Assembly (NCBI GenBank): GCA_964612215.1
Contig: CAZTEW010000001.1
Span: 12,432-76,431, forward strand
DNA: 64,000 nt
Direction of reading: 5' to 3'
DNA from: an uncultured Gammaproteobacteria bacterium
Lineage (GTDB): Bacteria; Patescibacteriota; Microgenomatia; CAZTEW01
The notes beneath the pieces were generated by a model that saw nothing but the letters and a program-made list of their open reading frames with translations, had not been told where the DNA came from and did not search any database. A program made the translations under genes and the position numbers. Shown here piece after piece: positions 1,248 through 31,646 of the stretch (the first letter of the stretch is position 1; every line of letters starts with the position of its first letter).

Positions 1248-2774
1248 TTAGATTTCGAGAAGACTTTCATAATCACTTTCCGTGAAAAATTGGGTTTTTT
1301 GGTAAATCCTAATGACCGGGTGGTCAAAAACAGACCAGGTTTCTTCAGCCATTTCATCAGGGATTAAAGGATAAGAGCTAAGCTCTTTGATTTTAAGAAA
1401 ACCTAATTGATTAGCGAAGAGCAAATCATAAAAGCGGCTGGTCAGAGGAAACTGGTTTGGCAAGCGCTGGTGGTTGCTGAACATTCTCCGGCTTTGGACG
1501 ATAAAATAGTCAGCTTCAGCTAAGAGACCAGGCAGTTCTTGCCGGAGGCTGGCTTGCTCGTCAAGATGATAAAAATCAAAGCCGACTTTTTTCAAACTGC
1601 CGGTTAGCGGTACTTCCAGCATGTTGCCGGATTCGGTCAGAACGGTTGCTGCCGCCGGCAGATTGGCATTCAGCCAGTCAGTCGCGGTGATTCTGACATC
1701 AGGCCGGAGATAGATAGAGAAAAAGATCAAAGTCCAGAGAAAGTTAGTAAAAAGTAAAAAGTAAAAAGTAAAAAGTAAAAATTTATTTTTTATTTTTTTA
1801 TATAAATAAGCGGTGAAGATGGCGAAAAAGGGAAAGCTGGGAGCAATAAAGCGGGTCCATTTGGCAAAAAGAAAAGCATGGGGTAGAAAAAGGAGCAGAA
1901 AAGCAGCGACAACCAAACGCCAATTCGGATTTCTGATGGCCAGAAAAAAACCGATGGTTCCCAAAAGCAAAACCGCTGGTCCGAGAGCGTAAGGGAGAAT
2001 TTTCTGAAACTGGAAAAGAACAGGCAGGGTGTTAATGAACTGGCGAGTGTAAAAAACTACTGGTTGGCCGCGGCCGACACCAGTTTCATAATTTAAAGAA
2101 TGGGAGAAAGCAGAGTAATCCAGCAGGCTATAAGGGAAAGCGCAAAAGAAAACAAAACCGGCAAGGAAAAGAGGAACGATCACTTTTTCGATTAAAAGAA
2201 AAGGTTTCGTTAAAACGAAAAATAACAAAATTGGTAGCCAAAACAAAACAGTAATTTTGGTAGCCAGAGCCAGACCAAAGCTGGCTGCGGCAAGATAAAG
2301 AAATTTGAGTTTTTTTGTTTTTTGGTACTGCATACCCAAATAAAGAAATAAAAATAGCCAAAAGGTCAAGTTAGATTCTGGGGTGGCAAAATGAGCTTGC
2401 TGGATTAGGCCAGGGAGAGTGGCGCTGAGCGCGGCCGCGAGAAGCGCCTGTTTGGGAAAGAGCCGGCGGGCAATTAAATAAACAAGAATAATCGTTAAAG
2501 TGGAAAAAAGAGCGGCGTAAAAACGGCCAATAATAATAGCGGGTAGCGTGTGGCCGATGGCGGCCAGCAGCAGCTTGGTGAAATAAATGAGATAAACAGT
2601 TAATGAGCCGTAAGAGAAAAGCTCAGGGTTCATCTGGCGGGGAAAAGAGAGTCTTTCAACTGCCGCGGCAAGATGGTATTCGTCCGGATGGAAGAAGTAA
2701 CCCTGACCCCAGTCAAGCTTAAAAAACCTGAAAAAGCCGCTAATCAGAATAATCAAGAGAAGTTTAAACGACAT
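1248..2774 (-). CDS. GT-C fold membrane glycosyltransferase (GT39 PMT/ArnT-like)
   Basis: 508 aa, more than 10 predicted TM helices. N-terminal loop motif DWGQGYFFHPDE, then YGSLTVYLIYF. Tandem paralog of the upstream truncated gene. Confidence 0.6.
   Translation of the reverse strand: MSFKLLLIILISGFFRFFKLDWGQGYFFHPDEYHLAAAVERLSFPRQMNPELFSYGSLTVYLIYFTKLLLAAIGHTLPAIIIGRFYAALFSTLTIILVYLIARRLFPKQALLAAALSATLPGLIQQAHFATPESNLTFWLFLFLYLGMQYQKTKKLKFLYLAAASFGLALATKITVLFWLPILLFFVLTKPFLLIEKVIVPLFLAGFVFFCAFPYSLLDYSAFSHSLNYETGVGRGQPVVFYTRQFINTLPVLFQFQKILPYALGPAVLLLGTIGFFLAIRNPNWRLVVAAFLLLFLPHAFLFAKWTRFIAPSFPFFAIFTAYLYKKIKNKFLLFTFYFLLFTNFLWTLIFFSIYLRPDVRITATDWLNANLPAAATVLTESGNMLEVPLTGSLKKVGFDFYHLDEQASLRQELPGLLAEADYFIVQSRRMFSNHQRLPNQFPLTSRFYDLLFANQLGFLKIKELSSYPLIPDEMAEETWSVFDHPVIRIYQKTQFFTESDYESLLEI
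1747..1781. repeat. Heptanucleotide tandem repeat (gtaaaaa)x5 inside GT-C gene
   Basis: Direct read: gt dinucleotide recurs at 1747, 1754, 1761, 1768, 1775. Encodes FLLFTFYFLLFT on the minus strand. Confidence 0.85.
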
Positions 2775-3669
2775 AGATAATGAGGATAGTCATTAATCCC
2801 CAGCCCATGACGCTTAAAGAAAGAGGAATGTCACTGGTCAGGAGCTTCTCCGGCCTTTCGCCGGCCTGTTTCTCATAAATCAGCTGGGCGTAACGCATAA
2901 TGCCGAAAATGACAAAAGGAATCGTGGCGGCCATCAACCACTTTCGGCCCAGAGCCTTAGGGAAGTTAATCACTAAAAATTGAGTTAAGGGCTCGCTGAA
3001 TTCAGGCGGTTCAGTGAAAAAGGTAAAAAGAGCATAAGAGACCAAAGCGGCGTTGGCAAAAGTTGAAGTGTAAAAATCAAGCAGTTGGCGGCGGTAGGCT
3101 AACAGCGCCGGTCTGGTTTTGGCGCCTTCCAAAACCAGTTCTGATCGCCGCTTGCCGGAGGCAATAAAAAGAGCCAGAAAAATAGCGGTGAGCATAAGCC
3201 AAATGGGAACATGAAAGCCGGTCAAGGCCTCGCCGACAAAAATGCGGATGATAAAAGAACTGGCAATGATTAAGATATCAACGACGGCAAATTTTTTTAA
3301 GAAAGAAGAATAAAGAAGGTGCAGGCTGATAAAAAGAAGGCCGAGGAGAAAAACGCTGATGCCTAAAAGCAAGCTGATAATCAAGCCGCTGATCGCCAGA
3401 AAAACAGCTAGCTGAATAGCAGTCTGAGGCTTTATTTTGCCGCTCGCCAGCGGCCGGTGTTTTTTTTGAGGATGGCGTTGGTCATAAGGCAGATCGATTA
3501 AGTCATTAAAAAGATAAGAAGCAGAAGAAAGTAGGCAAAAGACGCCGAACCCGCAAAGACAGCGGAGGAAAATTTCCGGGTTAAGCAGCTGGCCGGTAAA
3601 AATAATGGCGGTAAAAACCAGCGCGTTCTTAATCCACTGACCCGGTCTCAGAGAAGTGATTATAAACAT
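2764..3669 (-). CDS. UbiA-family prenyltransferase, decaprenyl-phosphate phosphoribosyltransferase-like
   Basis: 301 aa polytopic protein. N-terminal RPGQWIKNALVF and NDLIDLPYDQRHP (NDxxDxxxD) motifs, typical of the DPPR synthase branch of UbiA. Confidence 0.6.
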   Translation of the reverse strand: MFIITSLRPGQWIKNALVFTAIIFTGQLLNPEIFLRCLCGFGVFCLLSSASYLFNDLIDLPYDQRHPQKKHRPLASGKIKPQTAIQLAVFLAISGLIISLLLGISVFLLGLLFISLHLLYSSFLKKFAVVDILIIASSFIIRIFVGEALTGFHVPIWLMLTAIFLALFIASGKRRSELVLEGAKTRPALLAYRRQLLDFYTSTFANAALVSYALFTFFTEPPEFSEPLTQFLVINFPKALGRKWLMAATIPFVIFGIMRYAQLIYEKQAGERPEKLLTSDIPLSLSVMGWGLMTILIIYVV

Positions 3670-3734
3670 TATAAAGATTATAAGAGCTTGCTCGCTTCGC
3701 TGTGCTTCCTCTTGTAATTCTCCTTACAGTCAAA

Positions 3735-4958
3735 TTATAACTCGCTTGCGACCTTTTTGCCAATTTCAATCGCATAATTAACGCCTCGATCCCAAGGATA
3801 AATTAAGGACTGGTTAGCCAGAGAGACATTTTTCAGCGGGGTTTTCATCCCTGGCATGATTTTTGAATAATTAATGGGTATGACCGGTTGAGCATAAAGA
3901 TTAGCGAACAGCGAACAGCGAACAGCGAACAGCCTGGGGTTGATTTTTTTCAAATAGGGGAGAAACTCTTTGAGAACTTCATCTTTTTTCATCTTAAAGT
4001 AGCGGTGGTTTTGCGGATAATAGCCGCCAACATAAAGAAGACGGCAGTGATGATAGTACTGCCGATTGATGAAGTTGGTGTGTTCGACTACGGCCACAAA
4101 AGGAAAACCAGGTTCGTTAATATTGAGCCAGTAAGTATTGTCAGTTAAGAACTTTTCTCTAAGAGTTAAAACTAAAACTACGGCGCCGACAAATTTTAAA
4201 GATTGGAGACGGCGACGGTAATCAACTGGCAAATGAGGGGCGATTTTTAGAAATTCCGGCGTCGGCACCGTGACGATGATAGCATCAAAACCCTTTAACT
4301 CACCGAGTTTTTTTATGGTTGTACTTGTCAAAATTTGGCCACCGCTGGCTTTGATTTCCTCAGCCAGGCGGTCAATTAAAACCTGAAAACCGCCTTTTAA
4401 GTAGCCTAATTGTGAACTTCTTTTTTTGATTCTGGCCCAAAACCAAGACATGGCGATTTCATCGGCAAAAGAGCCGAACTTGCTTTGCAGCAGCGGCTGC
4501 CAAAGGGTTTGATAGACGGCTTGGCCGTAATATTTGCGCAGCCATTTTTCCGCCGTGACTTCTTCAAAAGACAGCGCTTTGCTGGCTTTAAGCCAAGCCG
4601 TCGCTAAACCCGCGCGGATTTTTTCCGGCCAGGAAAGGTGTGGAAAAGTCATTAGCGCTAATGGCGAATCAAAGGCAGAAATCCGGTTACTTCGGAAAAT
4701 AGAAGTTTTCGGCTGGTAATAGTGAAGCTGGTTTTGAAGATTAAGTTCGCTGATTAAATTTTGGACATGATGATCAGAAGTGAAAAGGTGGTGATAGAAA
4801 CGTTCTAATGACCATTGCCAGTTTTTTTCTCGAAACCCAGCCGCCAGGCCGCCTAAATAGCCTTCTTTTTCAAAAACAGAAACAGCCTGTCCCTTTTTGG
4901 CCAATTCGTAAGCTGCGGTTAGGCCGGTAATGCCAGCGCCAATAACAGCAATCTTCAT
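3735..4958 (-). CDS. FAD/NAD(P)-binding oxidoreductase (amine-oxidase/protoporphyrinogen-oxidase/UDP-galactopyranose-mutase-like fold)
   Basis: 407 aa. N-terminal Rossmann motif MKIAVIGAGITGLTAAYELAKKGQAVSVFEKEGYLGG. HHLFTSD resembles the UGM PHIFHT signature. Exact family unresolved. Confidence 0.55.
   Translation of the reverse strand: MKIAVIGAGITGLTAAYELAKKGQAVSVFEKEGYLGGLAAGFREKNWQWSLERFYHHLFTSDHHVQNLISELNLQNQLHYYQPKTSIFRSNRISAFDSPLALMTFPHLSWPEKIRAGLATAWLKASKALSFEEVTAEKWLRKYYGQAVYQTLWQPLLQSKFGSFADEIAMSWFWARIKKRSSQLGYLKGGFQVLIDRLAEEIKASGGQILTSTTIKKLGELKGFDAIIVTVPTPEFLKIAPHLPVDYRRRLQSLKFVGAVVLVLTLREKFLTDNTYWLNINEPGFPFVAVVEHTNFINRQYYHHCRLLYVGGYYPQNHRYFKMKKDEVLKEFLPYLKKINPRLFAVRCSLFANLYAQPVIPINYSKIMPGMKTPLKNVSLANQSLIYPWDRGVNYAIEIGKKVASEL
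3903..3930. repeat. Heptanucleotide tandem repeat (agcgaac)x4 inside oxidoreductase gene
   Basis: Direct read at 3903-3930. Encodes AVRCSLFANLY on the minus strand. Confidence 0.85.
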
Positions 4959-4970: not shown

Positions 4971-5447
4971 TCACAGAGCAAAGAGCAATCCGAGGATGAC
5001 GAGTGCGCCGCCAGCCAGAGCGGTGAGCCAGGTGGGTAGAGTGATGCCAGCTTCAGGCAGAGGAATCGGCGTCGGTGTTGGTAAGGCGTCTGGAGGAGCA
5101 GGCGGCGGCGTTGGCGTTGAAGTTGGTCCTGGGGTGGGCGTGGAAGTTGGTCCGGGCGTGCCGGTAGGCGTCGGTGTGCCGGTTGGCGTCGGTGTGCCGG
5201 TTGGCGTCGGTGTGGAGACGCCAGCGACATTAAAGCTTAAAGTGCAGGCGGCAACCGGATCCCTTTCGGCGGGTGGTAGTTGGGTGGGTGTGGCGGTCGG
5301 TTCCAGGGCCGGCGCCGGCTGGGGCGCGGTCGGAGCGACCGGCTGCTGGCGGAGCTGGTAGAGCCGCAAGGCAGTTATCACCGCAATCACCGCCAAGATG
5401 ACGGTCGCGCCTAAAATAAAAATTGTCGTCCGGTTTTTCTTTGGCAT
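4971..5447 (-). CDS. Small Pro/Thr-rich surface protein with N-terminal signal-anchor and C-terminal LPEAG-hydrophobic tail
   Basis: 158 aa. N-terminal TM. TPTPTGTPTPTG tandem repeats (tandem at the DNA level, 5100-5220). C-terminus LPEAGITLPTWLTALAGGALVILGLLFAL. Confidence 0.5.
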   Translation of the reverse strand: MPKKNRTTIFILGATVILAVIAVITALRLYQLRQQPVAPTAPQPAPALEPTATPTQLPPAERDPVAACTLSFNVAGVSTPTPTGTPTPTGTPTPTGTPGPTSTPTPGPTSTPTPPPAPPDALPTPTPIPLPEAGITLPTWLTALAGGALVILGLLFAL

Positions 5448-5451
5448 ATTT

Positions 5452-6843
5452 TTATCTCCAGCCTAGCGAGGGATTTTTTACCATCGCCTCGACCGTATAA
5501 CTACCTGAACTGGGAACTTCATACTGGACATAGAACTTGCCTGATTTTTTGCCGGTCGGTATTTGCCAGCTGCCGGCGTTAAACCGGAAGCGAGCGTCAG
5601 TAATGCCCTGAGGTTCTTCGCAACCGCCAGCGACCGCAAAATAAATTGTCTCGCCGACGCTGATCGTATTGAGATTGGTAATCGGCTGCCAATCCTCATT
5701 AAAAGCCGCCAGGCTGGTACAGCTTAAACTGTATTCTTGACCAGCTTCGCACCCCTCAACACAACCATGATCGCTGTTATGGCAGATGTCAAATCTAATG
5801 TCAGACTGCCAGGCACAATATTGAGGCGGACCATTGGCACTATTAGTATTGCCTCTGGTCCAGACTTCGTCTGGAGTGAGAGTCACTGCTTCGGAAAAAT
5901 CGCCACCGCTACAGAAGCAACTATCATTGTTTTGATGATCACACCAACGAGAAAACCAAACAGCCGTGCCGCTAATTGGCTGGTCAGTATTATTGATGAT
6001 CTTGACGCCGCCTTTATTTGCCTGACATTCTAAAGTGCCGCTGCCGACGCAAGTGCCGCCTTGACATTTGCCGGAAGCGCAATCTGAATCATAAACACAA
6101 CCAGCGTGACTGCCGCAGCTTTTACCACTAGCGCAATTGCCATTATCGACACTGCATGATTCCCAGTGAGCACAATCATTAGGGCCAGAGCAACAACCAG
6201 GTTTGCCAGGTTCTGGTTCAGGTTTACAGACGCTGCAGTTCGGATCATCGGTTTTCATGCATTGCTGGCCTTCGGCACAATCCTTGGTGCCGCTGCAGCA
6301 TTGCGTTCCCGGCGGGCTGGTGGGGCCAGGTGTTAAATCACCAGAACAGGGAGAGTTAGCTGGGTCAGGATTGACTGCTCCGGCGGAACAAGTGTACTGA
6401 TGGGTATCAGCATCACACCAAGTATCTGGCAAATCAATATAATTACAAGCTTGGTCACAGCCCCAGCGGCCGTCGGCATCGCAAGTGCTCCAGCCAGGTT
6501 CATGACCATTACATTTATGTTGGGGATTGTCAGGGTAATTACAGATATTATCGGCCATTTTGCGGACTTCCTGGCGCTGTTTGACTAGGGTCAAAGCCAC
6601 CGGCAGGGAAATGAGAATCAAAGCGATACCGGCAATTGCGGCGGCGACCCGGCCTTTTTTCTTGTTTGCCGCCGGCTTAATTTCCGGAGTTTCTTGGATG
6701 TTCCCCGGCTCTGGCTGTTTGTCAGTTGGCGGTGGCGGTGGCGGTGGCGGTGGTAGCTCAGCTGGCGGCACTGGCTGGCTGGCGGGAGGATTAATACCGG
6801 AAAGAGTTGGCGTTGCTGGCGGATTGGTCGGTTGGTCAGGCAT
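5452..6843 (-). CDS. Cys-rich ectodomain protein with polyproline N-terminal tail and single TM (type II topology)
   Basis: 463 aa. N-terminal about 60 aa Pro-rich including PPPPPPPPP. Then TM, then LVKQRQEVRKMA motif. Extracellular region has more than 50 Cys in CxxGxC-like spacing. 1-nt overlap with the upstream gene. Confidence 0.5.
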   Translation of the reverse strand: MPDQPTNPPATPTLSGINPPASQPVPPAELPPPPPPPPPTDKQPEPGNIQETPEIKPAANKKKGRVAAAIAGIALILISLPVALTLVKQRQEVRKMADNICNYPDNPQHKCNGHEPGWSTCDADGRWGCDQACNYIDLPDTWCDADTHQYTCSAGAVNPDPANSPCSGDLTPGPTSPPGTQCCSGTKDCAEGQQCMKTDDPNCSVCKPEPEPGKPGCCSGPNDCAHWESCSVDNGNCASGKSCGSHAGCVYDSDCASGKCQGGTCVGSGTLECQANKGGVKIINNTDQPISGTAVWFSRWCDHQNNDSCFCSGGDFSEAVTLTPDEVWTRGNTNSANGPPQYCAWQSDIRFDICHNSDHGCVEGCEAGQEYSLSCTSLAAFNEDWQPITNLNTISVGETIYFAVAGGCEEPQGITDARFRFNAGSWQIPTGKKSGKFYVQYEVPSSGSYTVEAMVKNPSLGWR

Positions 6844-8126
6844 TAAGGACTAAATTTAAAGTTTAAAAACAAGCCGCTAAAAATAAGGCTCAATCCCAGT
6901 ATGACAAAGAGAAGAGTGGGTGTCAAGTAGCCTGACTGAGGCACCCCGCTTTCAGTTGACGGCAAAGAAGTTCTTGGAACGCTGGTTGGCGTGGGGCTGG
7001 GGGTTGAAGTTGGCGAAACCTGGCCTGAAGGCGTGGCTGTAAAAGAAGGCAGGTCAGCCTCGCCGGCGGCAAGAATGGTAAATTCGCGGGAAACCGCGGC
7101 GCCGTCAGCGGTAGTAATCGTGATCGTGTGAACACCAGGTTCAAGATTAGCCGGCGGTACCCAGTGCCACTGGCCGTTTTCGTCAATCAAGACTTCGACT
7201 TCGAAGCTGGCTGAAGATTCCAGAATCAGGGTGACGGTTTCACCCTGAAGGCCGGTGCCCTGAAACTCAGGCCTCAAAGTATTTATCCCTTCACCTTCTT
7301 CAGGGTTAAGAATGGTTAACGGACTGATCCCGGGCCGATTGAGATTCAAAGGGTTAAGATTAAAGCCAGAGTTCCGGAATCCGGACGGCTGAGTCGGTTG
7401 AACCAGCGCCGGCCGGCGAAAATCATAAGTCTGGCCGAGAGTGATTTCTGGCACCGGCGAATCGTTTTGGCTGGTGACCAAAACCGTCGCTTCTCCCCAG
7501 CGGCCGGCCTGGACAAAAATTTCCTCGCTAGCGCTAGTACGGTCATAGTCAAAATAGCGAGTCAGGTCAGCGGTTCTGGCCATGCTTAAAGGAATTGTCC
7601 AGTGGCCGTCGGCCTGACTCAAGCCGGAAAGCGGACTGGCGCCAGCCAGGGTTAAATAAACAATCGCTTCCTGGCTAGGAGTGCCATCGGGTTGGAAAAC
7701 CTGGCCGTAGGCGGCGTCAGCCGCCGCTGCGGTCTGAAGATAAGGGCCGGTGGCGACTTCGTAAGGCCGGCCCTGCTGGTCATAGAGTTTCTCACTAGAG
7801 CCAATTTTTAAATAATATTTTGTTTCCGGCTGAAGATTTTCAATTTTTAAATAATGAAGCAAGTTAGTCTGGGTTTGAGTCTGGGTTTGGGTTAGAGAAA
7901 GAGAAGTTCCGTATTTGACAAGACCGACCGTTTCCTGATCAGTGATCCAGGAGACAGTAAAGCTGTTGGCATCAATATTAGTCACTTTAATTTGTTGAGG
8001 GATTGTTTGGGGAGCGGCGCCGAGAAAGCCAGTCCCGCCTTTTCTCAGCAAGAAAAGGCTAGCGGTCACGGCTGTCAGAATTAAAAAAAGGGCCAGGAGA
8101 GTGGGAATTGATTTTTTAGCTTTCAT
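6843..8126 (-). CDS. Surface protein with FN3-like and bacterial Ig-like domains and C-terminal hydrophobic anchor
   Basis: 427 aa. N-terminal signal-anchor. FN3-like FTVSWITDQETVGLVKYGTS..YYLKIGS. Ig-like TVTLILESS..HTITITTADGAAV. PT-rich linker. C-terminus VPQSGYLTPTLLFVILGLSLIF. Confidence 0.5.
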   Translation of the reverse strand: MKAKKSIPTLLALFLILTAVTASLFLLRKGGTGFLGAAPQTIPQQIKVTNIDANSFTVSWITDQETVGLVKYGTSLSLTQTQTQTQTNLLHYLKIENLQPETKYYLKIGSSEKLYDQQGRPYEVATGPYLQTAAAADAAYGQVFQPDGTPSQEAIVYLTLAGASPLSGLSQADGHWTIPLSMARTADLTRYFDYDRTSASEEIFVQAGRWGEATVLVTSQNDSPVPEITLGQTYDFRRPALVQPTQPSGFRNSGFNLNPLNLNRPGISPLTILNPEEGEGINTLRPEFQGTGLQGETVTLILESSASFEVEVLIDENGQWHWVPPANLEPGVHTITITTADGAAVSREFTILAAGEADLPSFTATPSGQVSPTSTPSPTPTSVPRTSLPSTESGVPQSGYLTPTLLFVILGLSLIFSGLFLNFKFSP

Positions 8127-8425
8127 TCTTTTCCAGGCTGGCCGCTAGGATTGGCACTAGAGGTTGTTTCGTTAGCTTCTGCGACCGGCCCTAATTCCTC
8201 CAGCCGGCCTAATTCTTCTTCTGAAATCCGAAGACGTTCTTTAAGCTGGTTGATTACCTCTTGATTTAATTTAGGATCCAAGGGCTGCATTTGTTGATCG
8301 AGAATTTCCGGTAGAGTATATCGAGTTAAAGCTCGGTAAACATCAAAGCCTATCCAGACCGCCACGGTCAGTAAAGTGGAAACAGCTAAGCTGATTAAAT
8401 CGCGGTTGATTTTTTTCTTTTTCAT
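8123..8425 (-). CDS. Small membrane protein (pilus-operon associated, function unknown)
   Basis: 100 aa. MKKKK plus one TM plus charged C-terminal region. 4-nt overlaps on both sides suggest translational coupling. Confidence 0.4.
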   Translation of the reverse strand: MKKKKINRDLISLAVSTLLTVAVWIGFDVYRALTRYTLPEILDQQMQPLDPKLNQEVINQLKERLRISEEELGRLEELGPVAEANETTSSANPSGQPGKE

Positions 8426-9039
8426 GGCAAAGAATAGATTTGAGCCTGAATTGTTAACATAATTGATGTTTCTTCTTCAAGGCCTGACTTTTCTTCAGCA
8501 AAGTCAAAGTTTTTTAAAATTACCAGTCTTTCCAGTTTTTCTAAATCAGTTAAGAATTTTTTTAAATCTTCATAATTGCCAGCGGCGCCAAAATCCACTG
8601 CCAGCGTCAATAGTTCGCTTTTTGGCTCAACAGGCAAGAGATCAGCCTTTTCTAGTTTAAAGCTGATGAGCTGAACGTTGTTTTTATAGGCCAAATATTC
8701 CAGTTGTTTGATGAGCTGAGAAAACTCGCTTTTTTTCGGCAAGGCGGCTTCAATATAGACCAGGTCTGGCTGGACGCGCAAATATTCCTTTTGCGCCAAG
8801 GAAAGAGAATTGATTTTTTGTTCCAGCTTTTGGCTAGCCTCACCCTTATCACGGATTTCCTTGATTAAGCCGCTGATGGTTCTTAAACTCGGCCTAATCG
8901 CGAAAAAGCCGCAAAAAGCGACCGTTAAAAGCGAAACTGCTAAAAAAGTAACATCTTTCACCGCCTGATCTTGATAAAGACCACCCAGGCGATGATAGTA
9001 GCGACGGTATTGGTGGTAAGGCTGTTGGCGATTATTCAT
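8422..9039 (-). CDS. pilO: Type IV pilus assembly protein PilO-like
   Basis: 205 aa. Single N-proximal TM, coiled-coil segment, C-terminal ferredoxin-like region typical of PilO. Immediately follows the PilN-like gene. Confidence 0.5.
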   Translation of the reverse strand: MNNRQQPYHQYRRYYHRLGGLYQDQAVKDVTFLAVSLLTVAFCGFFAIRPSLRTISGLIKEIRDKGEASQKLEQKINSLSLAQKEYLRVQPDLVYIEAALPKKSEFSQLIKQLEYLAYKNNVQLISFKLEKADLLPVEPKSELLTLAVDFGAAGNYEDLKKFLTDLEKLERLVILKNFDFAEEKSGLEEETSIMLTIQAQIYSLP

Positions 9040-9607
9040 TTTTGATTCTGTTTAAAGAATCAGCGGCCGGTGTTGCTTCACTGGCGCTGACAGTAAACTC
9101 AATCAGGCCTGATTCTTTTTTCCTGACTTCTTCAAGATTAATTTTTTCTAACTGGAGCTTTTCTTTTAAGCCGGTGAGAAAATGATGAAAGCCGGCATCA
9201 GAAATGGAGGTGGCGCTAATTTGCCAGCCGCCTTTTTCGATTTTTAACTCTGTTAAAACAACGTCCAGGGGAATGATGACCGACAATTGCTGCAGCCGGC
9301 TGGCGGCCGGAATTTGTTCACCGCTTAAGCGGTTGATTTCATTAAGTCTTTGCTGCAGCCGGCGGAAATTGGTTTCTAAGTCTTCTAACGAGCCGACAAT
9401 CGCCTGTTGTTGTTTAATGGTTTCGCTCAAGTCCATCAATTCCCGGTCAAGCTTAAACCGGGAAAGAAAACAAACAATCACGATGAGTTCAGTAGTGATG
9501 ACAATCCAGCGGCCGACAGTCAGGGTCCAATGAAGCAACTTGCCTAAGGAAGTTTGTTCAAAAGTTTTGATAAAAAGCAAATTGATTTCTTTTTTCCAGA
9601 CAGCCAT
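9032..9607 (-). CDS. pilN: Type IV pilus assembly protein PilN-like
   Basis: 191 aa. N-terminus KKEINLLF matches the PilN INLLP motif. One TM, then periplasmic coiled coil. Confidence 0.55.
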   Translation of the reverse strand: MAVWKKEINLLFIKTFEQTSLGKLLHWTLTVGRWIVITTELIVIVCFLSRFKLDRELMDLSETIKQQQAIVGSLEDLETNFRRLQQRLNEINRLSGEQIPAASRLQQLSVIIPLDVVLTELKIEKGGWQISATSISDAGFHHFLTGLKEKLQLEKINLEEVRKKESGLIEFTVSASEATPAADSLNRIKNE

Positions 9608-9640
9608 ATATTTTCAGTATAGAAATTTTCCCGGGATTTG

Positions 9641-9868
9641 TCAAAGGGCAGCAAGTTGGCTTTTGCAGCGAGCCGCTTTGTTCTGATGGAGGATGCCTTT
9701 TTTCACCGCCCGGTCAAGCACCGCATAAGCCAATGCCAGGCTTTTTTTGTTTTTCTTAGCCTTAGCTTTTTTAATCGCCATTTTGACCTTGTTTTTAATC
9801 CGGAGATTAACTAATCTACGGCGCTGGTCTTTCCGCAGGGCTTTTTTCGCTGATTGAGTGATAGGCAT
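9641..9868 (-). CDS. rpsT: 30S ribosomal protein bS20
   Basis: 75 aa. MPITQSAKKALRKDQRRRLVNLRIKNKVK..KKGILHQNKAARCKSQLA is canonical S20. Confidence 0.85.
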   Translation of the reverse strand: MPITQSAKKALRKDQRRRLVNLRIKNKVKMAIKKAKAKKNKKSLALAYAVLDRAVKKGILHQNKAARCKSQLAAL

Positions 9869-9888
9869 AGATAAATTCTATCATCTTC

Positions 9889-9917
9889 TTGTTTAATTCA
9901 CAACCAGAGGCTATACT
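9889..9917 (+). promoter_or_regulatory. Sigma70-like promoter for murJ (TTGTTT-17-TATACT)
   Basis: ttgttt at 9889-9894, 17-nt spacer, tatact at 9912-9917, 11 nt before the murJ ATG. Confidence 0.35.
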
Positions 9918-9928
9918 AAAAATACAAA

Positions 9929-11647
9929 ATGGTTGCTAATTTCTTAGGTCGGCGGCAGACGAACATTTCTTCCGCTGCCGCCATTATCAGTTTAATGATT
10001 GCTTTTTCCCGAATTCTGGGCTTGATGCGCAATCGGGTTTTGGCCCATTTTTTCTCTTCCACCGAGCTGTCTCTTTATTTTGCCGCCTTTCGTTTGCCAG
10101 GGGCTGTTTTCGACATTTTAGTTTTCGGCGTCATTTCCGCCGCTTTTATTCCTACCTTTACTGCCTATCTGGCTAAAGATGAAGAAAAACAGGCCTGGCA
10201 AATTGCCAATGGAGTTTTAATTCTGGCGTTGCTGGTATTTTTAGTCCTCTCCGGCTTGATTTTTTTATTGGCGGCGCCTCTTTACCGCCGGATTATTCCT
10301 GGTTTTAGCCAGGAGCAAATTGACCAAGTGGTTTTCCTGGCCAGAATCTTAATTGTTTCCCAGGGATTTTTCCTGCTGTCTTACTTTTTGACCGGCATTT
10401 TGGAATCATGGCAGCGCTTTTTAGTGCCGGCGATTGCGCCGATTTTCTATAACCTGGGAATTATCGGCGGCACGGCTTTTTTGGCGCCGAAATTGGGATT
10501 AACAGGGTCGGTTTTAGGCGTCGTGGCCGGCGCTTTTTTTCATTTTATTATTCAATTGCCTCTAGCTTTCAACCTTGGCTTCCGGCCGCGGTTAATTTTT
10601 AATTTTTCCCAGCCCGGTTTGAAAAAGGTGGGTCGATTAGCCTGGCCGCGGATAATTGAGCTTTCTCTTTTAGAGCTGGCGAAAACCATTGAGCTTTTTT
10701 TTGCTTCTCTAGTTTCAGTCGGCGCCTATACTTGGTTGACTTTTGCCAATTCGCTGCAGCTCTTGCCGGTGGATCTTTTCGGCACCAGCTTGGCCAAAGC
10801 CACCCTACCGACCTTTTCTTCTTTAGCGGCCCGCGAGGAAAATGACCAGTTTAAAAAAGTTTTTCTTTCATCCTGGCAGCAAATTCTCTTTTTAACTTTG
10901 CCGGCGTCGGTTTTTCTGGTGGTTTTGCGGGTGCCGATCGTCCGGCTGGTTTTTGGTGCCGCCCGCTTTACCTGGGAATCAACTTTGGAGACCGGGTACA
11001 CTCTTTCGGTTTTTTGCCTGGCGATTTTTTCTCAGGCTTTAGTTTTACTGCTTAACCGCGCCTTTTATGCTTTTCAAGAAACAAAAACAGCCGTGAAAGT
11101 TTCGGTTTTTTCTACTTTAATCAATATTATTCTCAGCGGACTCTTGATCTTAATTTTAAAATTTCCCCTTTGGGGGCTGGCTTTGTCTTTTACCCTGGCT
11201 TCTTTATTGCAGTTTTTAATTCTTTTTCGGCTGCTGGCAAACAAACTGGGCGGCTTTAGCAAAGAAGAAACCCTAACTCCTTTTTTGAAGACCGCCTTAG
11301 CAGCTGTTGTTGCCGGCGGTCTGATGTTTTTTCTTTTGAAAATTTTTGACCGGTCGGTTTGGGATAAACGGCTGTCTTTTTTAAATTTTTTCGGCTTGAG
11401 ACTTTCCACCAGCCTGGAGAAATTCGTTCTCGATACCCGCTACACGACTAATCTCATATTATTAACGGCTTTAGTGGCCCTAGCAGGCGCCGGGGCTTAT
11501 TTAGGCTTAGCTTGGGTTTTGAAAATCAAGGCCTTAATGGTCTTTTTAAAAACCGATTACCGGCTGGCCGGAAGAAATTTCTTTAAAGAGCCAGACCGAG
11601 AAATAATAACAGCAACCCCGAAAGAAGGCTCAGAACCGTTGGTGTGA
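9929..11647 (+). CDS. murJ: Lipid II flippase MurJ (MviN)
   Basis: 572 aa, 14 TM helices. N-terminus SRILGLMRNRVLAHFFSSTELSLYFAAFRLPGAVFDI matches the MurJ signature. Confidence 0.85.
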   Translation: MVANFLGRRQTNISSAAAIISLMIAFSRILGLMRNRVLAHFFSSTELSLYFAAFRLPGAVFDILVFGVISAAFIPTFTAYLAKDEEKQAWQIANGVLILALLVFLVLSGLIFLLAAPLYRRIIPGFSQEQIDQVVFLARILIVSQGFFLLSYFLTGILESWQRFLVPAIAPIFYNLGIIGGTAFLAPKLGLTGSVLGVVAGAFFHFIIQLPLAFNLGFRPRLIFNFSQPGLKKVGRLAWPRIIELSLLELAKTIELFFASLVSVGAYTWLTFANSLQLLPVDLFGTSLAKATLPTFSSLAAREENDQFKKVFLSSWQQILFLTLPASVFLVVLRVPIVRLVFGAARFTWESTLETGYTLSVFCLAIFSQALVLLLNRAFYAFQETKTAVKVSVFSTLINIILSGLLILILKFPLWGLALSFTLASLLQFLILFRLLANKLGGFSKEETLTPFLKTALAAVVAGGLMFFLLKIFDRSVWDKRLSFLNFFGLRLSTSLEKFVLDTRYTTNLILLTALVALAGAGAYLGLAWVLKIKALMVFLKTDYRLAGRNFFKEPDREIITATPKEGSEPLV

Positions 11648-12686
11648 GAAAGCCGGTTGCCGGCAAGTCTTCAGCGTCGGCCACCGTGAAAGAGACCGAG
11701 TCAGTGGTGGTTTGGCCGCTGCTGTCAGTGGCAGTGACTGTGGCCGTATGGCTGCCGGTTTCCAATTCGCTGGGCGGCGTCCAAGACCAGTTGCCGGCCG
11801 CATCAGCATAGACCATGCCGGTGATCGGCGTTGATTGCACGGTGATGGTGATTTTCGCTCCGGGAGCCGCGGTGCCAGATAAAGTTGGCGGATTACTGCT
11901 GCTGGAAATACTGCTTAAGCTGACCGGATTACTGGAGGTTCCGCCACCAGAAGCGGTAGTCGGTGTTGCCGTCGGCGAGGCGCGAGTTGGCGTCGGCGTG
12001 TTAGTGGGTTCGCCAGCTGATTGAGTGGGTGTGGGAGTATTCGTTACTCCGGCTGATTCTGTCGGCGTGGCCGTGGCTTCTGGCGGTATGGTTGTTGGTG
12101 TCGCCGTGGCTGTTGCCCCACCGCCAATCGTGTAAGAGCCATTGCTCGTCGGCGTCAAAAGAATATCGACATTGTCAATCTTGCTTTGAATTTTGCTTTG
12201 TTGAGGATCGAAACTTAAAACCACCGGATTAACCGCCGGCACTTCATTAGCCACGAGATTAAAAGAAGCGAGTAAAGTATCGCTGGCAGCGGTAAAGCCT
12301 TCAGTGGTAATATTAGCGCAGGCGATATCAATTTCAACCTGACTGCCTGTTGGAGTAATGGTTTTCACCGGACACATCCAGTTGCCGCTCGTCAGAAAAG
12401 AAGGATTAATTTGTAGACTAGAAGCCGTTAGGTTGCCGCTCAACGGATAAGTAATCCGCACCGCAATCGAAGAAATGGGAATGCTGACTGGATTAAAATA
12501 GACGCTGACTGGAAATGATTGGCCGACTTCATAATTACCTGAAGCTGGCGAAAGAGAAACTAGGGCTGTGCCGCTTGGCGTCGAAGCTCTTTTTCTGATT
12601 TCCTGACGCTGTTTGACTAAATAAACCCCCAAAGGAATGGCGACAATGACCAAAATAATAAAGAGTAAAATGGCAATTTTTTTCAT
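11583..12686 (-). CDS. Surface protein: N-anchor, cohesin-like domain, PT linker, Ig-like domain, C-terminal LPATG-hydrophobic signal
   Basis: 367 aa. N-terminus MKKIAILLFIILVIVAIPLGVYLVKQRQEIRKRA. Cohesin-like beta-sandwich region identical to that of 13294..14712. C-terminus LPATGFLTPTVLSLLSGLLLLFLGLAL. Confidence 0.5.
   Translation of the reverse strand: MKKIAILLFIILVIVAIPLGVYLVKQRQEIRKRASTPSGTALVSLSPASGNYEVGQSFPVSVYFNPVSIPISSIAVRITYPLSGNLTASSLQINPSFLTSGNWMCPVKTITPTGSQVEIDIACANITTEGFTAASDTLLASFNLVANEVPAVNPVVLSFDPQQSKIQSKIDNVDILLTPTSNGSYTIGGGATATATPTTIPPEATATPTESAGVTNTPTPTQSAGEPTNTPTPTRASPTATPTTASGGGTSSNPVSLSSISSSSNPPTLSGTAAPGAKITITVQSTPITGMVYADAAGNWSWTPPSELETGSHTATVTATDSSGQTTTDSVSFTVADAEDLPATGFLTPTVLSLLSGLLLLFLGLAL
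12205..12605. repeat. Copy A of perfect 401-bp direct repeat (partner 14219..14619)
   Basis: Compared both stretches base by eye and they are identical. Boundaries set by flanking mismatches. Encodes the shared RKRASTPSGT..VLSFDP cohesin-like domain. Confidence 0.8.
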
Positions 12687-12689
12687 CGT

Positions 12690-13307
12690 TTATTTAATTT
12701 GGTAAATGCCTGTTAGAAAATTAAGCTTTACTTTTTGGTTATCTTTAGTTGTTAATTTAGTCTGTTGAGGATCAAAAGCTAGGATTAAATTTTCAATCGC
12801 CGCTTCGGCCGTCAATTCAATTGTGCCTAAAATATCTTCTCCGTTTAGTTGAAAACCAGTCAGGGTTGGGTTAACAGCCGCTAATTCAAGATTAACAGTT
12901 TTATTTTGCCAGTCAACCCAAACTTTATTGATTGGGTAGATCCAGCCCTGTTGCTGCCAGTCAGAATTAGGTTGAATTTTAGTGCTTTGGGGTTGTAAAG
13001 GCGGGATTTTATCAAAAGGATAACTTAAGTGAAGAGCAATGCCAGAAAGAGAAAGATTTTGACCGGTTAGTCTGATCTCCAAAGATAGGTTTTGATCAAC
13101 CACTAATTGACTGTTTTGAGGAACAAGAAAGAGACTGGCTTGAGTTTCTGTCGTCATTTGCTTTTCCGGCAAACTAGATTCCGTGACTGCTTGGTGGAAA
13201 GCTGGATTTTTTGTTCTCTGCAGATTGAGAAAAACTAGCCAGCTGCCTATCACTAATAAAATGATTAGACCAAATAAAAACAACTTTTTCATTTTATTGA
13301 TCTCCAA
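12690..13307 (-). CDS. Membrane-anchored single-domain protein (cohesin-like)
   Basis: 205 aa. N-terminal TM then LNLQRTKNP. Beta-rich domain ending LAFDPQQTKL, similar to the FDPQQSKI region of the neighbours. Confidence 0.4.
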   Translation of the reverse strand: MEINKMKKLFLFGLIILLVIGSWLVFLNLQRTKNPAFHQAVTESSLPEKQMTTETQASLFLVPQNSQLVVDQNLSLEIRLTGQNLSLSGIALHLSYPFDKIPPLQPQSTKIQPNSDWQQQGWIYPINKVWVDWQNKTVNLELAAVNPTLTGFQLNGEDILGTIELTAEAAIENLILAFDPQQTKLTTKDNQKVKLNFLTGIYQIK

Positions 13308-14712
13308 GTACAGTCAAGGCAGTATAGTTTAATAAAACAGCAGAGATATCATCAATTTCGATGAAACTATTAGCATTGACATCAAATTGCTGATTACTAG
13401 CGCTAACCGGCACTGATAGAGCCGTGTAAACGCCAATAACGGCGCCTACGTCATCAATGTCAAGCTGATTATCATTATTAAAGTCGCCGCTCTTAACTTC
13501 AATTGAATTCCAAGAAGCAGAGGCCTGATTATTGCTGGCTGTGAGAGTGATGTTGCCAAGTTTTTTTTGTAAATGACCGTTATCTTTAACAAGAACTTCA
13601 ACATTAACGCCACCAGCAGGGAAAGAGAGATTGGCCAGAGAAATAGGATTAACAGGTGCAAAAGAACTATGAGCGCCGCTTTGACAAATAACACTGGGAT
13701 AAACTTGACCAGACGGTCCTTTAAGAGTTACCCGGATAGATTTAGAAATTCCTTGTTGATTGATTCCTTGCATTCTGAAACCAAAAGAGAGCGTGGGAGC
13801 GTTAGTCGTGGCTTCAGCAATATTTGACAAATTAGAAATGTTGCCCGCAGTATCAATAGATTTAATGGCAAAATAGTATTTTGTTCCGGGATTAAGTCCA
13901 GAAACAGTAAATGTTTCAGCTTTTCCAGGGTTGCCTGGGATTGGTAATCCACTCACTGGTGTAGCGCTAGACCAATTAGTGTTAGTAATCACTGAAGTAG
14001 AATAGCGCAGGTCGTAAAGGTTGGCTTTTCCAGCTGGTCCTGCGTCAGCGGGAGCGGTCCAAGACAAACTTAAGGAGTTAAAGGAGACGTTAGTTATATT
14101 CAGATTAGTGATGGCGGCTGGCGGTGTCAAGTCTAGGTTAATTGTATATGAAGCAGCGGCTGGCGGTGTTAAGAGAATGTCTTGATTTTGAGCTTTGCTC
14201 ATGATTTTACTGGCGGCTGGATCAAAACTTAAAACCACCGGATTAACCGCCGGCACTTCATTAGCCACGAGATTAAAAGAAGCGAGTAAAGTATCGCTGG
14301 CAGCGGTAAAGCCTTCAGTGGTAATATTAGCGCAGGCGATATCAATTTCAACCTGACTGCCTGTTGGAGTAATGGTTTTCACCGGACACATCCAGTTGCC
14401 GCTCGTCAGAAAAGAAGGATTAATTTGTAGACTAGAAGCCGTTAGGTTGCCGCTCAACGGATAAGTAATCCGCACCGCAATCGAAGAAATGGGAATGCTG
14501 ACTGGATTAAAATAGACGCTGACTGGAAATGATTGGCCGACTTCATAATTACCTGAAGCTGGCGAAAGAGAAACTAGGGCTGTGCCGCTTGGCGTCGAAG
14601 CTCTTTTTCTGATTTCCTGCTTTTCTTGAGTAAGTTGAGAAGCAACAACCAAACCAATGATTAAAATTAAAAGAAAGAAAAAACCCAAAAGATATTTTTT
14701 CATTTTATTCAT
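13294..14712 (-). CDS. Surface protein: N-anchor, cohesin-like domain, FN3 domain, C-terminal type I dockerin
   Basis: 472 aa. N-terminus LTQEKQEIRKRASTPSG. FN3 LSLSWTAPAD..YYFAIKSIDTAGN. Dockerin repeats GDFNNDNQLDIDDVGAVIGVY and QFDVNANSFIEIDDISAVLLNY with Ca-binding D/N at positions 1, 3, 5, 9, 12. Confidence 0.55.
   Translation of the reverse strand: MNKMKKYLLGFFFLLILIIGLVVASQLTQEKQEIRKRASTPSGTALVSLSPASGNYEVGQSFPVSVYFNPVSIPISSIAVRITYPLSGNLTASSLQINPSFLTSGNWMCPVKTITPTGSQVEIDIACANITTEGFTAASDTLLASFNLVANEVPAVNPVVLSFDPAASKIMSKAQNQDILLTPPAAASYTINLDLTPPAAITNLNITNVSFNSLSLSWTAPADAGPAGKANLYDLRYSTSVITNTNWSSATPVSGLPIPGNPGKAETFTVSGLNPGTKYYFAIKSIDTAGNISNLSNIAEATTNAPTLSFGFRMQGINQQGISKSIRVTLKGPSGQVYPSVICQSGAHSSFAPVNPISLANLSFPAGGVNVEVLVKDNGHLQKKLGNITLTASNNQASASWNSIEVKSGDFNNDNQLDIDDVGAVIGVYTALSVPVSASNQQFDVNANSFIEIDDISAVLLNYTALTVLGDQ
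14219..14619. repeat. Copy B of perfect 401-bp direct repeat
   Basis: Identical to 12205..12605, offset 2014 bp. Confidence 0.8.
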
Positions 14713-15982
14713 CGCCAGGTATCACTAAAGCAGTATAATTTAATAAAATGCCAGAAACATCAGTGATATCAATCATATTATCACCATTAATATCAAATTG
14801 TCGAGTGCTGCCGCTCACCGGGACCGATAGAGCGGTGTAAACGCCAATGATGGCGCCAACATCGTCAATTGCAAGCTCGTTGTTGTTATTAAAATCACCG
14901 GCTTTGAGGATTTGTTCGGGCGCGTTGAGGAGAGCGGCTTGGCCGGCGGCGAGCTCGACTTGGCCGAGATTTTTTTGCAAATGAGCCCAGCCTTTGACGA
15001 AAACAGTATAAGCGCCGGGGTCAAGGTTATGGAGAGTGCCGACATAGACGCCGCTGCCGTCGTGACCGAACTCAAAATTATCAAAAATCTGATCGTTGCC
15101 ACTATTTGGTCGAAGAGTGACTTTAGCTGTTTTTACTCCTTTATCGCCATCAATGCCCTGAAATTTGATTTTAATCGTTAAATTGCCTTTTTGCGGTTCC
15201 TGGGTAGGCGTTGGGCTGGGAATTGGCGTGTTGGTCGGTGTCGGCGTGTTGGTCGGTACTGGCGTGGCGGTTGGGTTAGGCGTTGCTGTCGGCGTTGGTG
15301 TCGTTGTGGCGGTAGGCGTAGGTGTGTTCGTTGGTTCGCCGGCCGGAACAGCCTCAATGACAATCGCATCAGCGGTTCCCAAAATGTCTTCACCTGCCTG
15401 ACTAACAACATTGGTATCCGGCGTACTGCCTTGAATAACTGTTTCCTGGCAACTGGCATCAGCCGTACTGCGGAAGCAGAAACTAATCTTGCTGCTGCCT
15501 TCAGCCAGAGCTTTGAAAACAATAGTTGCTAAGGGATTGACGATGGTTTCAACAGGATCGGTAGCGCTATCAGCCATCCAATTAAAACCTAAAGCGCCAA
15601 AAGAAAGCATGCCGGTTTGATTGGCTTGAGCGATGACTGTGTCTTTATCAAAACTGCCATCTGCAAGAACCGGAGCAAAGGTTTTTAAGTTTGTGGTAAG
15701 GTTAGGCATAATATCCATTACTTGCAGTAAATTTTTATCAAAAGTTAATATGATATCAGCGGCAACGACACTTTGACCGCCAGGGTTAAGAATCAGATTA
15801 ACATCAAAATTGTTGCCAACTACTGGTTGAGTTTCGCCAGCTAAAACCAGTGCGGCGCTGTAGTTAACGGCTTTTTTTCTAATTTCTTGATGCTGCTGGA
15901 CAAGAATAGAAACAGTCACGAGAGCGGTTAAAAGCAGCAAAAAAGAAAAAATCGCCCACCAAGTTTTTCTGGTTATTTTCAT
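14705..15982 (-). CDS. Surface protein: N-anchor, cohesin-like domain, long PT linker, C-terminal type I dockerin
   Basis: 425 aa. N-terminus LVQQHQEIRKKA. PTNTPTPTATTTPTPTATP linker. Dockerin repeats GDFNNNNELAIDDVGAIIGVY and QFDINGDNMIDITDVSGILLNY. Confidence 0.55.
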   Translation of the reverse strand: MKITRKTWWAIFSFLLLLTALVTVSILVQQHQEIRKKAVNYSAALVLAGETQPVVGNNFDVNLILNPGGQSVVAADIILTFDKNLLQVMDIMPNLTTNLKTFAPVLADGSFDKDTVIAQANQTGMLSFGALGFNWMADSATDPVETIVNPLATIVFKALAEGSSKISFCFRSTADASCQETVIQGSTPDTNVVSQAGEDILGTADAIVIEAVPAGEPTNTPTPTATTTPTPTATPNPTATPVPTNTPTPTNTPIPSPTPTQEPQKGNLTIKIKFQGIDGDKGVKTAKVTLRPNSGNDQIFDNFEFGHDGSGVYVGTLHNLDPGAYTVFVKGWAHLQKNLGQVELAAGQAALLNAPEQILKAGDFNNNNELAIDDVGAIIGVYTALSVPVSGSTRQFDINGDNMIDITDVSGILLNYTALVIPGDE

Positions 15983-23197: not shown

Positions 23198-23833
23198 CTA
23201 TTTTTTCCAGTTGGGTAAAAATTTTACTAGCCATTGGTTAGCATCTAAAAAGCGCTGATGAAAATTATCTTTTTGATTCAGCACCTGCATTTGGCAAATT
23301 TCATGAGCCGTAAAAAGGTTACGTTTGGATGGGGGAAGAGTCAAATGATTCTCGTCAAGAAGCACGTTGAGACAGGCTTTATCACGGACATTAATGTCGT
23401 TTGGCCTTCTTCTTTTTCCCAGAATTTCGGTTAAAAGAAGGACAAAAAATCTTGTCAACCAAAGCCGGTTAGCCGCGGTGATAATCAAAAAATCAAGATC
23501 ATCATTTTCTTTGGCATTGCCGATGGCGACCGCGCCGGTGGCGGCAATCAATTTGATGGTTGGCAGTCGCCGCAGCCAACGACTGATCCGCCGAGCGCTA
23601 GCCAGCTTTTTTTGGCTGGTTTTTTGCCGCCGGCGACGGATTTTAACAATTTCCCCACGCCCTGCCAAAAAATAAAAGCCGTTCTTTTTTTGGACTTGTT
23701 TTTTTTTAATTAAATTTTGAATTTTTAATTGGGAATTGCCAATCAGAAATTTACTAATTTCTGATTGGGTCAGCGGATAGTCAAAAAGATCATGATAGCA
23801 AAGAGTGCTCAGAACAGCTAACTTGATCGTCAT
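23198..23833 (-). CDS. Hypothetical protein with Pol-beta-type nucleotidyltransferase-like motif
   Basis: 211 aa. ATGAVAIGNAKENDDLDFLIIT resembles the GS..DxD NTase fold motif. Weak. Confidence 0.35.
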   Translation of the reverse strand: MTIKLAVLSTLCYHDLFDYPLTQSEISKFLIGNSQLKIQNLIKKKQVQKKNGFYFLAGRGEIVKIRRRRQKTSQKKLASARRISRWLRRLPTIKLIAATGAVAIGNAKENDDLDFLIITAANRLWLTRFFVLLLTEILGKRRRPNDINVRDKACLNVLLDENHLTLPPSKRNLFTAHEICQMQVLNQKDNFHQRFLDANQWLVKFLPNWKK

Positions 23834-31341: not shown

Positions 31342-31646
31342 AGGAACTTCTGCTGCCGCTATTCTTGGTGCTGCTTTTGCTTTCAGTCTTTTGGCCGAAA
31401 AGAAATATTATCAGCGAGTGGCAGAGAAAAGAAGCCATCGAAGCCGAAATTAATTTTTGGGAAAAGACCGCTGAGCAATATCCAGGCGATGGCGATGCTT
31501 TTCTCAGACTAGCGGTTCTTCATTGGCAGGTACATCAACAGGCTACCGCCGCTGATTATTTAGAAAAAGCCCGCTACTTGAACCCGAATTCAGAGAAGAT
31601 TAAGGAAGTAGAAGGTCTGATTGCTGATCAGCTCGAGGCTCAATGA
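31311..31646 (+). CDS. Small membrane-anchored protein with TPR-like C-terminus (hypothetical)
   Basis: 112 aa from ATG 31311 (MARKNKNQPVKELLLPLFLVLLLLSVFW..). Overlaps the valS 3' end in another frame. The longer track ORF from 31116 is rejected. Confidence 0.3.
   Translation: MARKNKNQPVKELLLPLFLVLLLLSVFWPKRNIISEWQRKEAIEAEINFWEKTAEQYPGDGDAFLRLAVLHWQVHQQATAADYLEKARYLNPNSEKIKEVEGLIADQLEAQ

Follow-up and report, generated by a model that had tools for sequence, protein, structure and literature searches.

Three minus-strand genes that lie within 8 kb of one another in a Microgenomates bacterium of the candidate phyla radiation (CPR) encode otherwise unrelated proteins that finish in much the same way, which raises the question of whether these ends are a C-terminal sorting signal and, if so, what reads it. 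The genes belong to a stretch of 64,000 nucleotides of contig CAZTEW010000001.1, the whole of which we call the window, and we refer to their products as families A, B and C (Table 1); related loci and proteins are cited by L and P numbers. An earlier note on this DNA had described three proteins ending in an LPxxG-type pentapeptide, a second short box and a hydrophobic helix, and the three gene ends read exactly so. The family A tail is LPATG-FLTPT-VLSLLSGLLLLFLGLAL, whose pentapeptide is an exact LPXTG, the family B tail is VPQSG-YLTPT-LLFVILGLSLIFSGLFLNFKFSP, and the family C tail is LPEAG-ITLPT-WLTALAGGALVILGLLFAL; they begin 27, 33 and 29 residues, respectively, before the protein end. 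Each protein has its signal in roughly the last 40 residues, and each has a hydrophobic segment at the N-terminus. The G[FY]LTPT box that the note had given to all three tails is present in families A and B, but family C reads G-ITLPT. What is conserved in all three is P-T at positions +4 and +5 after the Gly and a second Gly 12 residues after the first.

The pattern [LIV]Px[TAS]GxxxPT was found three times in the six-frame open reading frames (ORFs) of the window of at least 120 amino acids, against 0.009 occurrences expected from composition, and all three copies are 27-33 residues from a stop codon with a hydrophobic stretch after each. Linkers rich in Pro and Thr make an isolated 'PT' or 'LP' easy to obtain, and one could suppose that such linkers running into hydrophobic ends resemble one another by composition alone. 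However, the motif stands at a fixed distance from the C-terminus and is kept across many genomes, though the linkers upstream of it are hypervariable. A tail profile searched against 1.84 billion representative proteins gave 12 significant matches, among them families A and C and other small proteins, and all 12 finish at the last residue; the matches are few because the profile is just 29 positions long, so that they inform on position and are not a census. These conservation data refute a chance resemblance, to which we give next to no credence.

A set of 111 non-redundant tails was drawn from homologues and from related loci. The motif is kept in the orthologues of Woesebacteria, Shapirobacteria, Levybacteria and further Microgenomates. 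The named homologues belong to metagenome-assembled genomes of these groups and of other Patescibacteria, which places the window in a CPR bacterium of the Microgenomates group. Alignment of the 111 tails gives the signature [LIV]-P-x-[A/T/S]-G-phi-x-x-P-T-x6-G, where phi is a hydrophobic residue. Position 1 is Leu, Val or Ile; Pro occupies position 2 in 100% of the tails; position 4 is Ala (41%), Thr (28%), Ser (28%) or Pro (3%); and Gly at position 5 (95%), Pro at position 9 (86%), Thr at position 10 (95%), Gly at position 17 (98%) and Leu at position 20 (72%) follow. Because phi-x-x-P-T is the general element in this set, G[FY]LTPT is its local form. The P-T pair is degenerate (NT, ST or LT) in some tails and the LPxxG part is retained there, so LPxxG is the primary motif. 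The proteins that carry the tail combine a cohesin with a Big_13 domain, or an FN3 with a Big_13 domain, or are short and rich in Pro and Thr; up to three tails are present per related locus, and the pairing of the tail with unrelated passengers recurs in more than 15 other loci. When unrelated proteins share a motif, this typically marks a signal read by a single machine, and the tails have the features by which C-terminal sorting domains are generally recognized (Haft preprint). The tail is a genuine shared C-terminal sorting-type signal on unrelated passengers.

The earlier note had also stated that no basic tail follows the helix. This is correct for families A and C of the window, whose tails hold no Lys, Arg or His, and the family B tail holds a single Lys (..LNFKFSP), but it is not a general property. 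In the 111 tails, 22-26 mostly hydrophobic residues follow the Gly. Sixty-seven tails are of a tail-less form that ends 22-26 residues past the Gly (median 24, exactly 24 in 45 of the 67), and in the other 44 the first Lys or Arg appears at residue 24 past the Gly (range 22-27). The onset of Lys/Arg thus coincides with the endpoint of the tail-less form, so that both forms are one signal whose third part is optional. The two forms occur side by side in one operon of the same genomes, the tailed one in family B and the tail-less one in family C, so absence of the basic tail is a trait of the protein family and not of the lineage or the enzyme.

The exact G[FY]LTPT box is less widespread than the general signature. 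Metagenomes were scanned with a degenerate DNA pattern for [LIV]PxxG[FY][LF]TPT, and the scan was evaluated on 120 stretches among the matches listed, which are a sample and not a count. In 21 of these the motif looked like a C-terminal signal (19 were judged family B orthologues and 2 chance), and another 98 were chance or unrelated occurrences, such as the acyl-CoA synthetase motif LPENGFLTPTMKLKR. The box therefore recurs beyond the window, but in this sample of at least 120 stretches it was confined to family B of a pilN-pilO operon, and only family B has the exact string GYLTPTF as its signature. Searched by themselves as a profile, the tails gave 2 matches in a library of 5.8 billion proteins, a database too large for so short a query, and a scan of viral contigs found no relatives.

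We then compared the tails with known sorting signals. TIGR01167 (LPXTG_anchor) was the top NCBIfam model for 21 of 43 related tails, though by weak matches (best E 0.0012); PEP-CTERM matched one of the 43 (E 5.5), MSEP-CTERM two and Firmicu-CTERM one. The LPXTG model is thus the nearest known model by a wide margin, and the resemblance seen in the earlier note holds. Scores grade downward within one homologous family. P0060 (IPVTGAMENT...RRRHA), a distant homologue of family A, scored 17.2 bits and was the sole one above the curated cut-off of 15.9 bits; the family A proteins P0020 (LPVTGFDTPT...) and P0029 scored 15.5 and 11.1 bits, and the window tails gave no match (the canonical control, P0055, scored 26.5 bits). 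Like LPXTG signals, these tails lie at the extreme C-terminus of Sec-exported surface proteins, place a pentapeptide resembling [LIV]PxTG before a membrane-spanning hydrophobic segment, and occur in several copies a genome on unrelated passengers. Unlike them, they have Ala or Ser at position 4 more often than Thr, they add P-T at +4/+5 and Gly at +12 after the Gly, and 60% have no basic tail. In Staphylococcus aureus the LPxAG proteins retain the basic tail and are not known to have an xxPT box. Their Ala at the scissile position in place of Thr is comparable to LPEAG, LPDAG and LPSAG here, and LPxAG is accepted as a sortase A motif in that species (PMC3436756).

On balance, and with moderate confidence, we read the tails as a Microgenomates (CPR) lineage variant of the LPXTG-type sortase sorting signal. 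The precursors would be exported via Sec by the N-terminal hydrophobic segment, and the C-terminal helix, from P-T onward, would retain them in the membrane with the extended LPxxG just outside the bilayer. In the AlphaFold model of family A, LPATGFL is unstructured (predicted local distance difference test score, pLDDT, below 50 at residues 340-347) and a helix occupies residues 347-366; an unstructured LPATG just before the terminal helix is, in this model, the geometry expected of a sortase site. The signal itself, its conservation, position and fixed geometry, and its profile similarity to LPXTG are shown by the data; we infer the steps that would follow, namely cleavage, its site, the enzyme responsible and attachment to the wall: a membrane-anchored sortase, encoded elsewhere in the genome, would cleave after position 4, and peptidoglycan or lipid II would be the acceptor to which the protein is joined. 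On this reading family A would serve as a cohesin scaffold, anchored to the wall, for its dockerin-bearing neighbors.

Several observations weigh against a sortase. At E values up to 10 the three window tails matched neither TIGR01167 nor PF00746, and the curated models for C-terminal sorting in NCBIfam 20.0 and Pfam gave no match to them. Thr is a minority at position 4, where Ala and Ser are both found, and the Pro that a few family B orthologues have there would be an odd scissile residue. The 67 tail-less forms lack the basic cluster of the standard tripartite design (Haft preprint). The near-invariant intramembrane Gly and the P-T at the helix start are foreign to the classical LPXTG signal and suggest recognition in the membrane. 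Finally, neither the 64-kb window nor the surroundings of any homologue in the related Microgenomates loci showed a sortase in searches by regular expression, by phmmer with S. aureus SrtA, by hidden Markov model (HMM) and by inspection of ten neighborhoods around homologues.

In the window itself the absence of a sortase, as the earlier note had reported, was borne out. TLxTC is absent from every real ORF, PF04203 matched no ORF of at least 150 amino acids in a Pfam search, and phmmer with S. aureus SrtA found none. An HMM built from 120 real sortases had no match in the window or in CPR loci; these 120 were those listed among 7951 real sortases retrieved with made-up consensus probes, and they are of the Acidobacteria/Actinobacteria class D/E type, not from CPR. 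The window and the related loci add up to well below one genome-equivalent. The genes of housekeeping sortases usually lie apart from those of their substrates, and for this reason the absence of a sortase from the window and loci is weak evidence. Meheust et al. 2019 call a sortase family 'near ubiquitous in Microgenomates', and in the supplementary table of that work a CPR sortase family numbers 1903 proteins from 1020 CPR genomes, with PF04203 matches in 93% of the proteins. A second paper reports that a complete Microgenomates genome encodes a sortase (PMC7143001). The window also contains a Gram-positive-type set of wall genes, comprising MurJ, FemAB, VanW with PG_binding_4, M23 and DUF4012. 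Of these, murJ, which encodes the lipid II flippase, could be the context of a peptidoglycan envelope usable by a sortase, and the FemAB-family gene is a possible builder of peptidoglycan cross-bridges.

Alternatively, the signal could be read by a different C-terminal sorting enzyme, an intramembrane protease or transpeptidase of the exosortase/archaeosortase, rhombosortase, CPBP/Rce1-like or M50 site-2-protease kind, which would recognize the P-T at the membrane boundary and the intramembrane Gly. The P-T at the start of the helix resembles the PEP, PGF and GlyGly motifs in its placement, the Pro that opens the helix and the conserved mid-helix Gly are suggestive of intramembrane recognition, and a missing basic tail is atypical of sortase signals. 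Known readers of such signals are exosortase (PEP), archaeosortase (PGF), rhombosortase (GlyGly) and myxosortase (JDVT-CTERM), and the DP conserved inside the membrane helix of JDVT-CTERM is a precedent for conserved intramembrane residues (Haft preprint). In general C-terminal layout, including a motif with Pro at the membrane boundary, these signals resemble the tails, but their signature residues are different, they have an Arg-rich tail and their HMMs barely match here: the PEP, PGF and GG signatures are absent from the tails, and no non-sortase sorting model matched more than two of the 43. Some orthologues read VPDSG, which we take to be the name motif of the exosortase-type signal TIGR03778; a VPDSG-CTERM/exosortase identity was dropped, as no NCBIfam match supported it. 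Moreover, LPxxG persists where P-T degenerates, and the literature searched shows no tie between these enzymes and CPR. Exosortase, archaeosortase, rhomboid, CPBP and M50 domains were all absent from the window (Pfam on ORFs of at least 150 amino acids, NCBIfam on unannotated or polytopic ORFs), and the unannotated ORFs at 23198-23833, 26574-28046, 31116-31646 and 55067-55969 have no peptidase signature. Given this evidence, we consider an enzyme of these kinds unlikely.

The only protease gene repeatedly found near a tail-bearing gene is a small Peptidase_M50 gene of the site-2-protease family (199-212 amino acids), which in four loci (L002, L023, L146 and L149) occurs at a distance of 2-6 kb from a short family A gene. 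It belongs to an M50-L28-Fmt-Def-Wzy_C block that is absent from the lineage of the window. We judged its position to be probably housekeeping synteny and rejected it as the tail enzyme.

The conserved features of the helix allow a further proposal, namely that the signal is recognized inside the membrane, either by an undescribed CPR sorting enzyme or by a CPR sortase that reads the helix of its substrate. It may be based on the near-invariant P-T, the conserved Gly in mid-helix, a length fixed at 24 residues and a basic tail that is dispensable, and we put it forward tentatively, as a doubtful case. If true, it would be a new pairing of enzyme and signal among prokaryotic C-terminal sorting systems, in which one in-membrane reader serves both a protein of a pilus operon and a cohesin-dockerin surface scaffold.

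The pilus operon bears on another explanation. Family B is the fourth gene and family C the last in an operon that adjoins murJ, is headed by the type IV pilus platform genes pilN and pilO, and has the order pilN, pilO, a 100-amino-acid gene, B, a Cys-rich gene and C. This arrangement is conserved in L010-L017, L019, L035, L039, L072, L093, L101, L145 and L150, and the pilN-pilO operon with family B spans Levybacteria, Woesebacteria and Shapirobacteria. Family B consists of an N-terminal anchor, an FN3-like domain, a Big_13 domain and the C-terminal signal; its orthologues occupy the same operon slot in L010-L017, L019, L145 and L150, and their tails read SMPSTExG-[VIL]Px[STAP]G-YLTPTF, followed by the helix and usually by a Lys/Arg-rich end (KKKLF, KFKKVF or LRKI). 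Family C has an N-terminal anchor (with RLYQLRQQ), a Pro/Thr-rich region and the signal. Its orthologues (P0202, P0210 and ORFs in L010-L018, L035, L039, L072, L093 and L101) read ELPxAG[FI]xxPT and never have a basic tail.

Such a tail could be a permanent, uncleaved transmembrane anchor that holds the protein at one or both ends, in which case LPxxG...PT...G would serve helix capping, packing or contacts with membrane partners, for instance PilN and PilO, and not recognition by a protease. Family B is fixed in the pilN-pilO operon from Levybacteria to Woesebacteria, its GYLTPTF is conserved far beyond what a generic sorting signal requires, Pro stands at position 4 in some of its orthologues, the family has a stop-transfer tail rich in Lys, and no processing enzyme was found nearby, in the window or the related loci. 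There is also a parallel in the Pam pilus of CPR, where the C-terminal helices of PamC, PamD and PamR are interpreted as permanent anchors (bioRxiv 10.64898/2026.03.03.709456). Those are likewise secreted Ig-like or FN3 proteins of CPR (Saccharimonadia/Microgenomatia) with a C-terminal helix, but they are described as plain anchors for which no conserved LPxxG...PT motif is reported. On the other hand, five positions are common to three unrelated passenger families, including a tiny Pro/Thr-rich protein and a cohesin scaffold that is not linked to the pilus, the motif aligns best to LPXTG models, and distant homologues bear bona fide LPXTG signals at the same place. For the tails in general we regard a permanent anchor as rather unlikely; for family B it is where this explanation is most plausible. 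In Microgenomates, the monoderm type IV pilus platform may include family B as a component not recognized before.

In family A an N-terminal signal or anchor helix with KQRQEIRKRA is followed by a cohesin-fold domain, a Pro/Thr-rich linker, a Big_13 Ig-like domain and the tail. In the AlphaFold model (mean pLDDT 81) the N-terminal helix covers residues 2-33, and Foldseek found the N-terminal domain similar to clostridial cohesins (E 2.7e-10, template modeling score, TM, 0.74). Family A has 72 homologues, the named ones being from Microgenomates. Sortase-anchored cohesin scaffoldins are known from cellulosomes, for example ScaE of Ruminococcus flavefaciens. As in these, a cohesin here sits on a linker that ends in an LPXTG-type signal, with dockerin-like or dockerin proteins encoded nearby, but the host is an ultra-small CPR bacterium and the signal is the tail-less variant. 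Four tandem paralogues share the N-terminal cohesin-fold domain of family A, and those of 472 and 425 amino acids have dockerin-like paired repeats (DFNNDNQLDIDD...DVNANSFIEIDD) in place of the sorting tail; the repeats are below Pfam significance. In L149 (1646-9427) a family A gene has as neighbors the genes of a GH16 enzyme and of an FN3 protein that matches Pfam Dockerin_1. This arrangement suggests a small cellulosome-like scaffold in Microgenomates.

The earlier note had proposed that these proteins are processed at both ends. An N-terminal element, (V/I)(K/R)Q(R/K)Q(E/D)(I/L)R(K/E)(K/R)A, is indeed present after the first hydrophobic helix, at residues ~20-35, in the family A gene product, the 472- and 425-amino-acid paralogues and the Cys-rich protein, and family C has the related RLYQLRQQ. 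It is nearly invariant in 40 homologues (L23, Q28, A34, P37 and G39), and in the AlphaFold model it continues the first helix; it might provide the context for signal peptidase or serve in retention close to the membrane. However, nothing similar to this element was found in family B, so that it is on two of the three tail proteins, and it is also on neighbors that lack the tail. The element is therefore not coupled to the C-terminal signal, and processing at both ends as a single system is unsupported.

In the portions of the literature retrieved by searches on sortase with Microgenomates, candidate phyla radiation or LPXTG, we found no description of a CPR sorting signal. CPR account for a large part of bacterial diversity, living attached to other cells, and almost nothing is known of how their proteins are displayed at the surface. 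An HMM-ready signature would permit prediction of the surface proteome for thousands of CPR genomes, since the LPXTG models in current use miss such tails. It would also let phylogenetic profiling identify the responsible enzyme and would flag candidates for host attachment, such as cohesin-dockerin scaffolds and type IV pilus-associated proteins. We rate the practical value of the signature and of this handle on the enzyme as moderate. The tail-less form bears on the long-held view that the basic tail is required for membrane retention of sortase substrates.

Table 1. Features of the window and of four related loci, with amino acid lengths where given
Feature	Position	Strand	Remarks
Flavoprotein, UbiA and PMT_2 genes	1248-4958	minus	after the pilN-pilO operon
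Family C gene, 158 aa	4971-5447	minus	last gene of the pilN-pilO operon
Family C tail	4974-5060	minus	stops 24 residues past Gly, without basic tail
Cys-rich gene, 463 aa	5452-6843	minus	between B and C; KQRQEVRK, without C-terminal signal
Family B gene, 427 aa	6843-8126	minus	fourth gene of the pilN-pilO operon
Family B tail	6846-6944	minus	one Lys past the helix
pilO	8422-9039	minus	Pfam PilO, E 3e-15
pilN	9032-9607	minus	Pfam PilN, E 6e-8
murJ, lipid II flippase, 572 aa	9929-11647	plus	PF03023 recorded for syntenic orthologues
Family A gene, 367 aa	11583-12686	minus	ORF; Big_13 by Pfam
Family A tail	11586-11666	minus	stops 22 residues past Gly, without basic tail
Four tandem paralogues, with family A	11583-15982	minus	cohesin-fold N-terminal domain
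Tandem set of family A paralogues	12690-15982	minus
Paralogue, 472 aa	13294-14712	minus	dockerin-like repeats
Paralogue, 425 aa	14705-15982	minus	dockerin-like repeats
Polytopic protein gene	26574-28046		unannotated
FemAB-family gene	36283-37092	plus	Pfam FemAB, E 1.6e-13
Peptidase_M50 gene	L002 12785-13384
Peptidase_M50 gene	L023 16322-16954
Peptidase_M50 gene	L146 14922-15551
Peptidase_M50 gene	L149 13911-14549

Further observations concern the neighbors of these genes. The murJ and family A genes converge and overlap by 65 nucleotides (11583-11647), so that the DNA of the sorting tail also encodes, on the opposite strand, the last ~20 residues of MurJ. The overlap is also called in the close relatives L001, L150 and L151; in distant relatives MurJ has 547-553 amino acids and the called murJ and family A genes do not overlap. 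The first ~170 residues of the family A protein and of its 472-amino-acid paralogue (P0003) are 92% identical and the rest diverges, which points to the N-terminal cohesin module having recently been duplicated or undergone gene conversion.

The Cys-rich protein encoded between families B and C, which is secreted or anchored, has a Pro-rich N-terminus (PPPPPPPPPP) that is apparently cytoplasmic, one transmembrane helix and an extracellular part with 34 Cys; it had no Pfam or NCBIfam match. In L019 and L150 an unannotated gene of 419-437 amino acids occupies its operon slot. The operon is followed by genes for an amine-oxidase-type flavoprotein, a UbiA prenyltransferase and a PMT_2 glycosyltransferase, and in the Levybacteria locus L145 (11555-14479) the flavoprotein and PMT_2 are fused into one protein of 974 amino acids. 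The fusion points to a shared pathway, which could make a polyprenyl-phosphate-sugar wall polymer or glycosylate the Pro/Thr linkers. In total the window has three PMT_2 genes, in addition to the unannotated polytopic protein. Finally, the records of L006, L009-L012 and L015-L017 are titled 'uncultured Gammaproteobacteria' or 'Nevskiaceae', one of them a 615-kb 'chromosome', and carry typical Microgenomates pilN-pilO-B-C loci; the titles of these GTDB genome records look like taxonomic mislabels.

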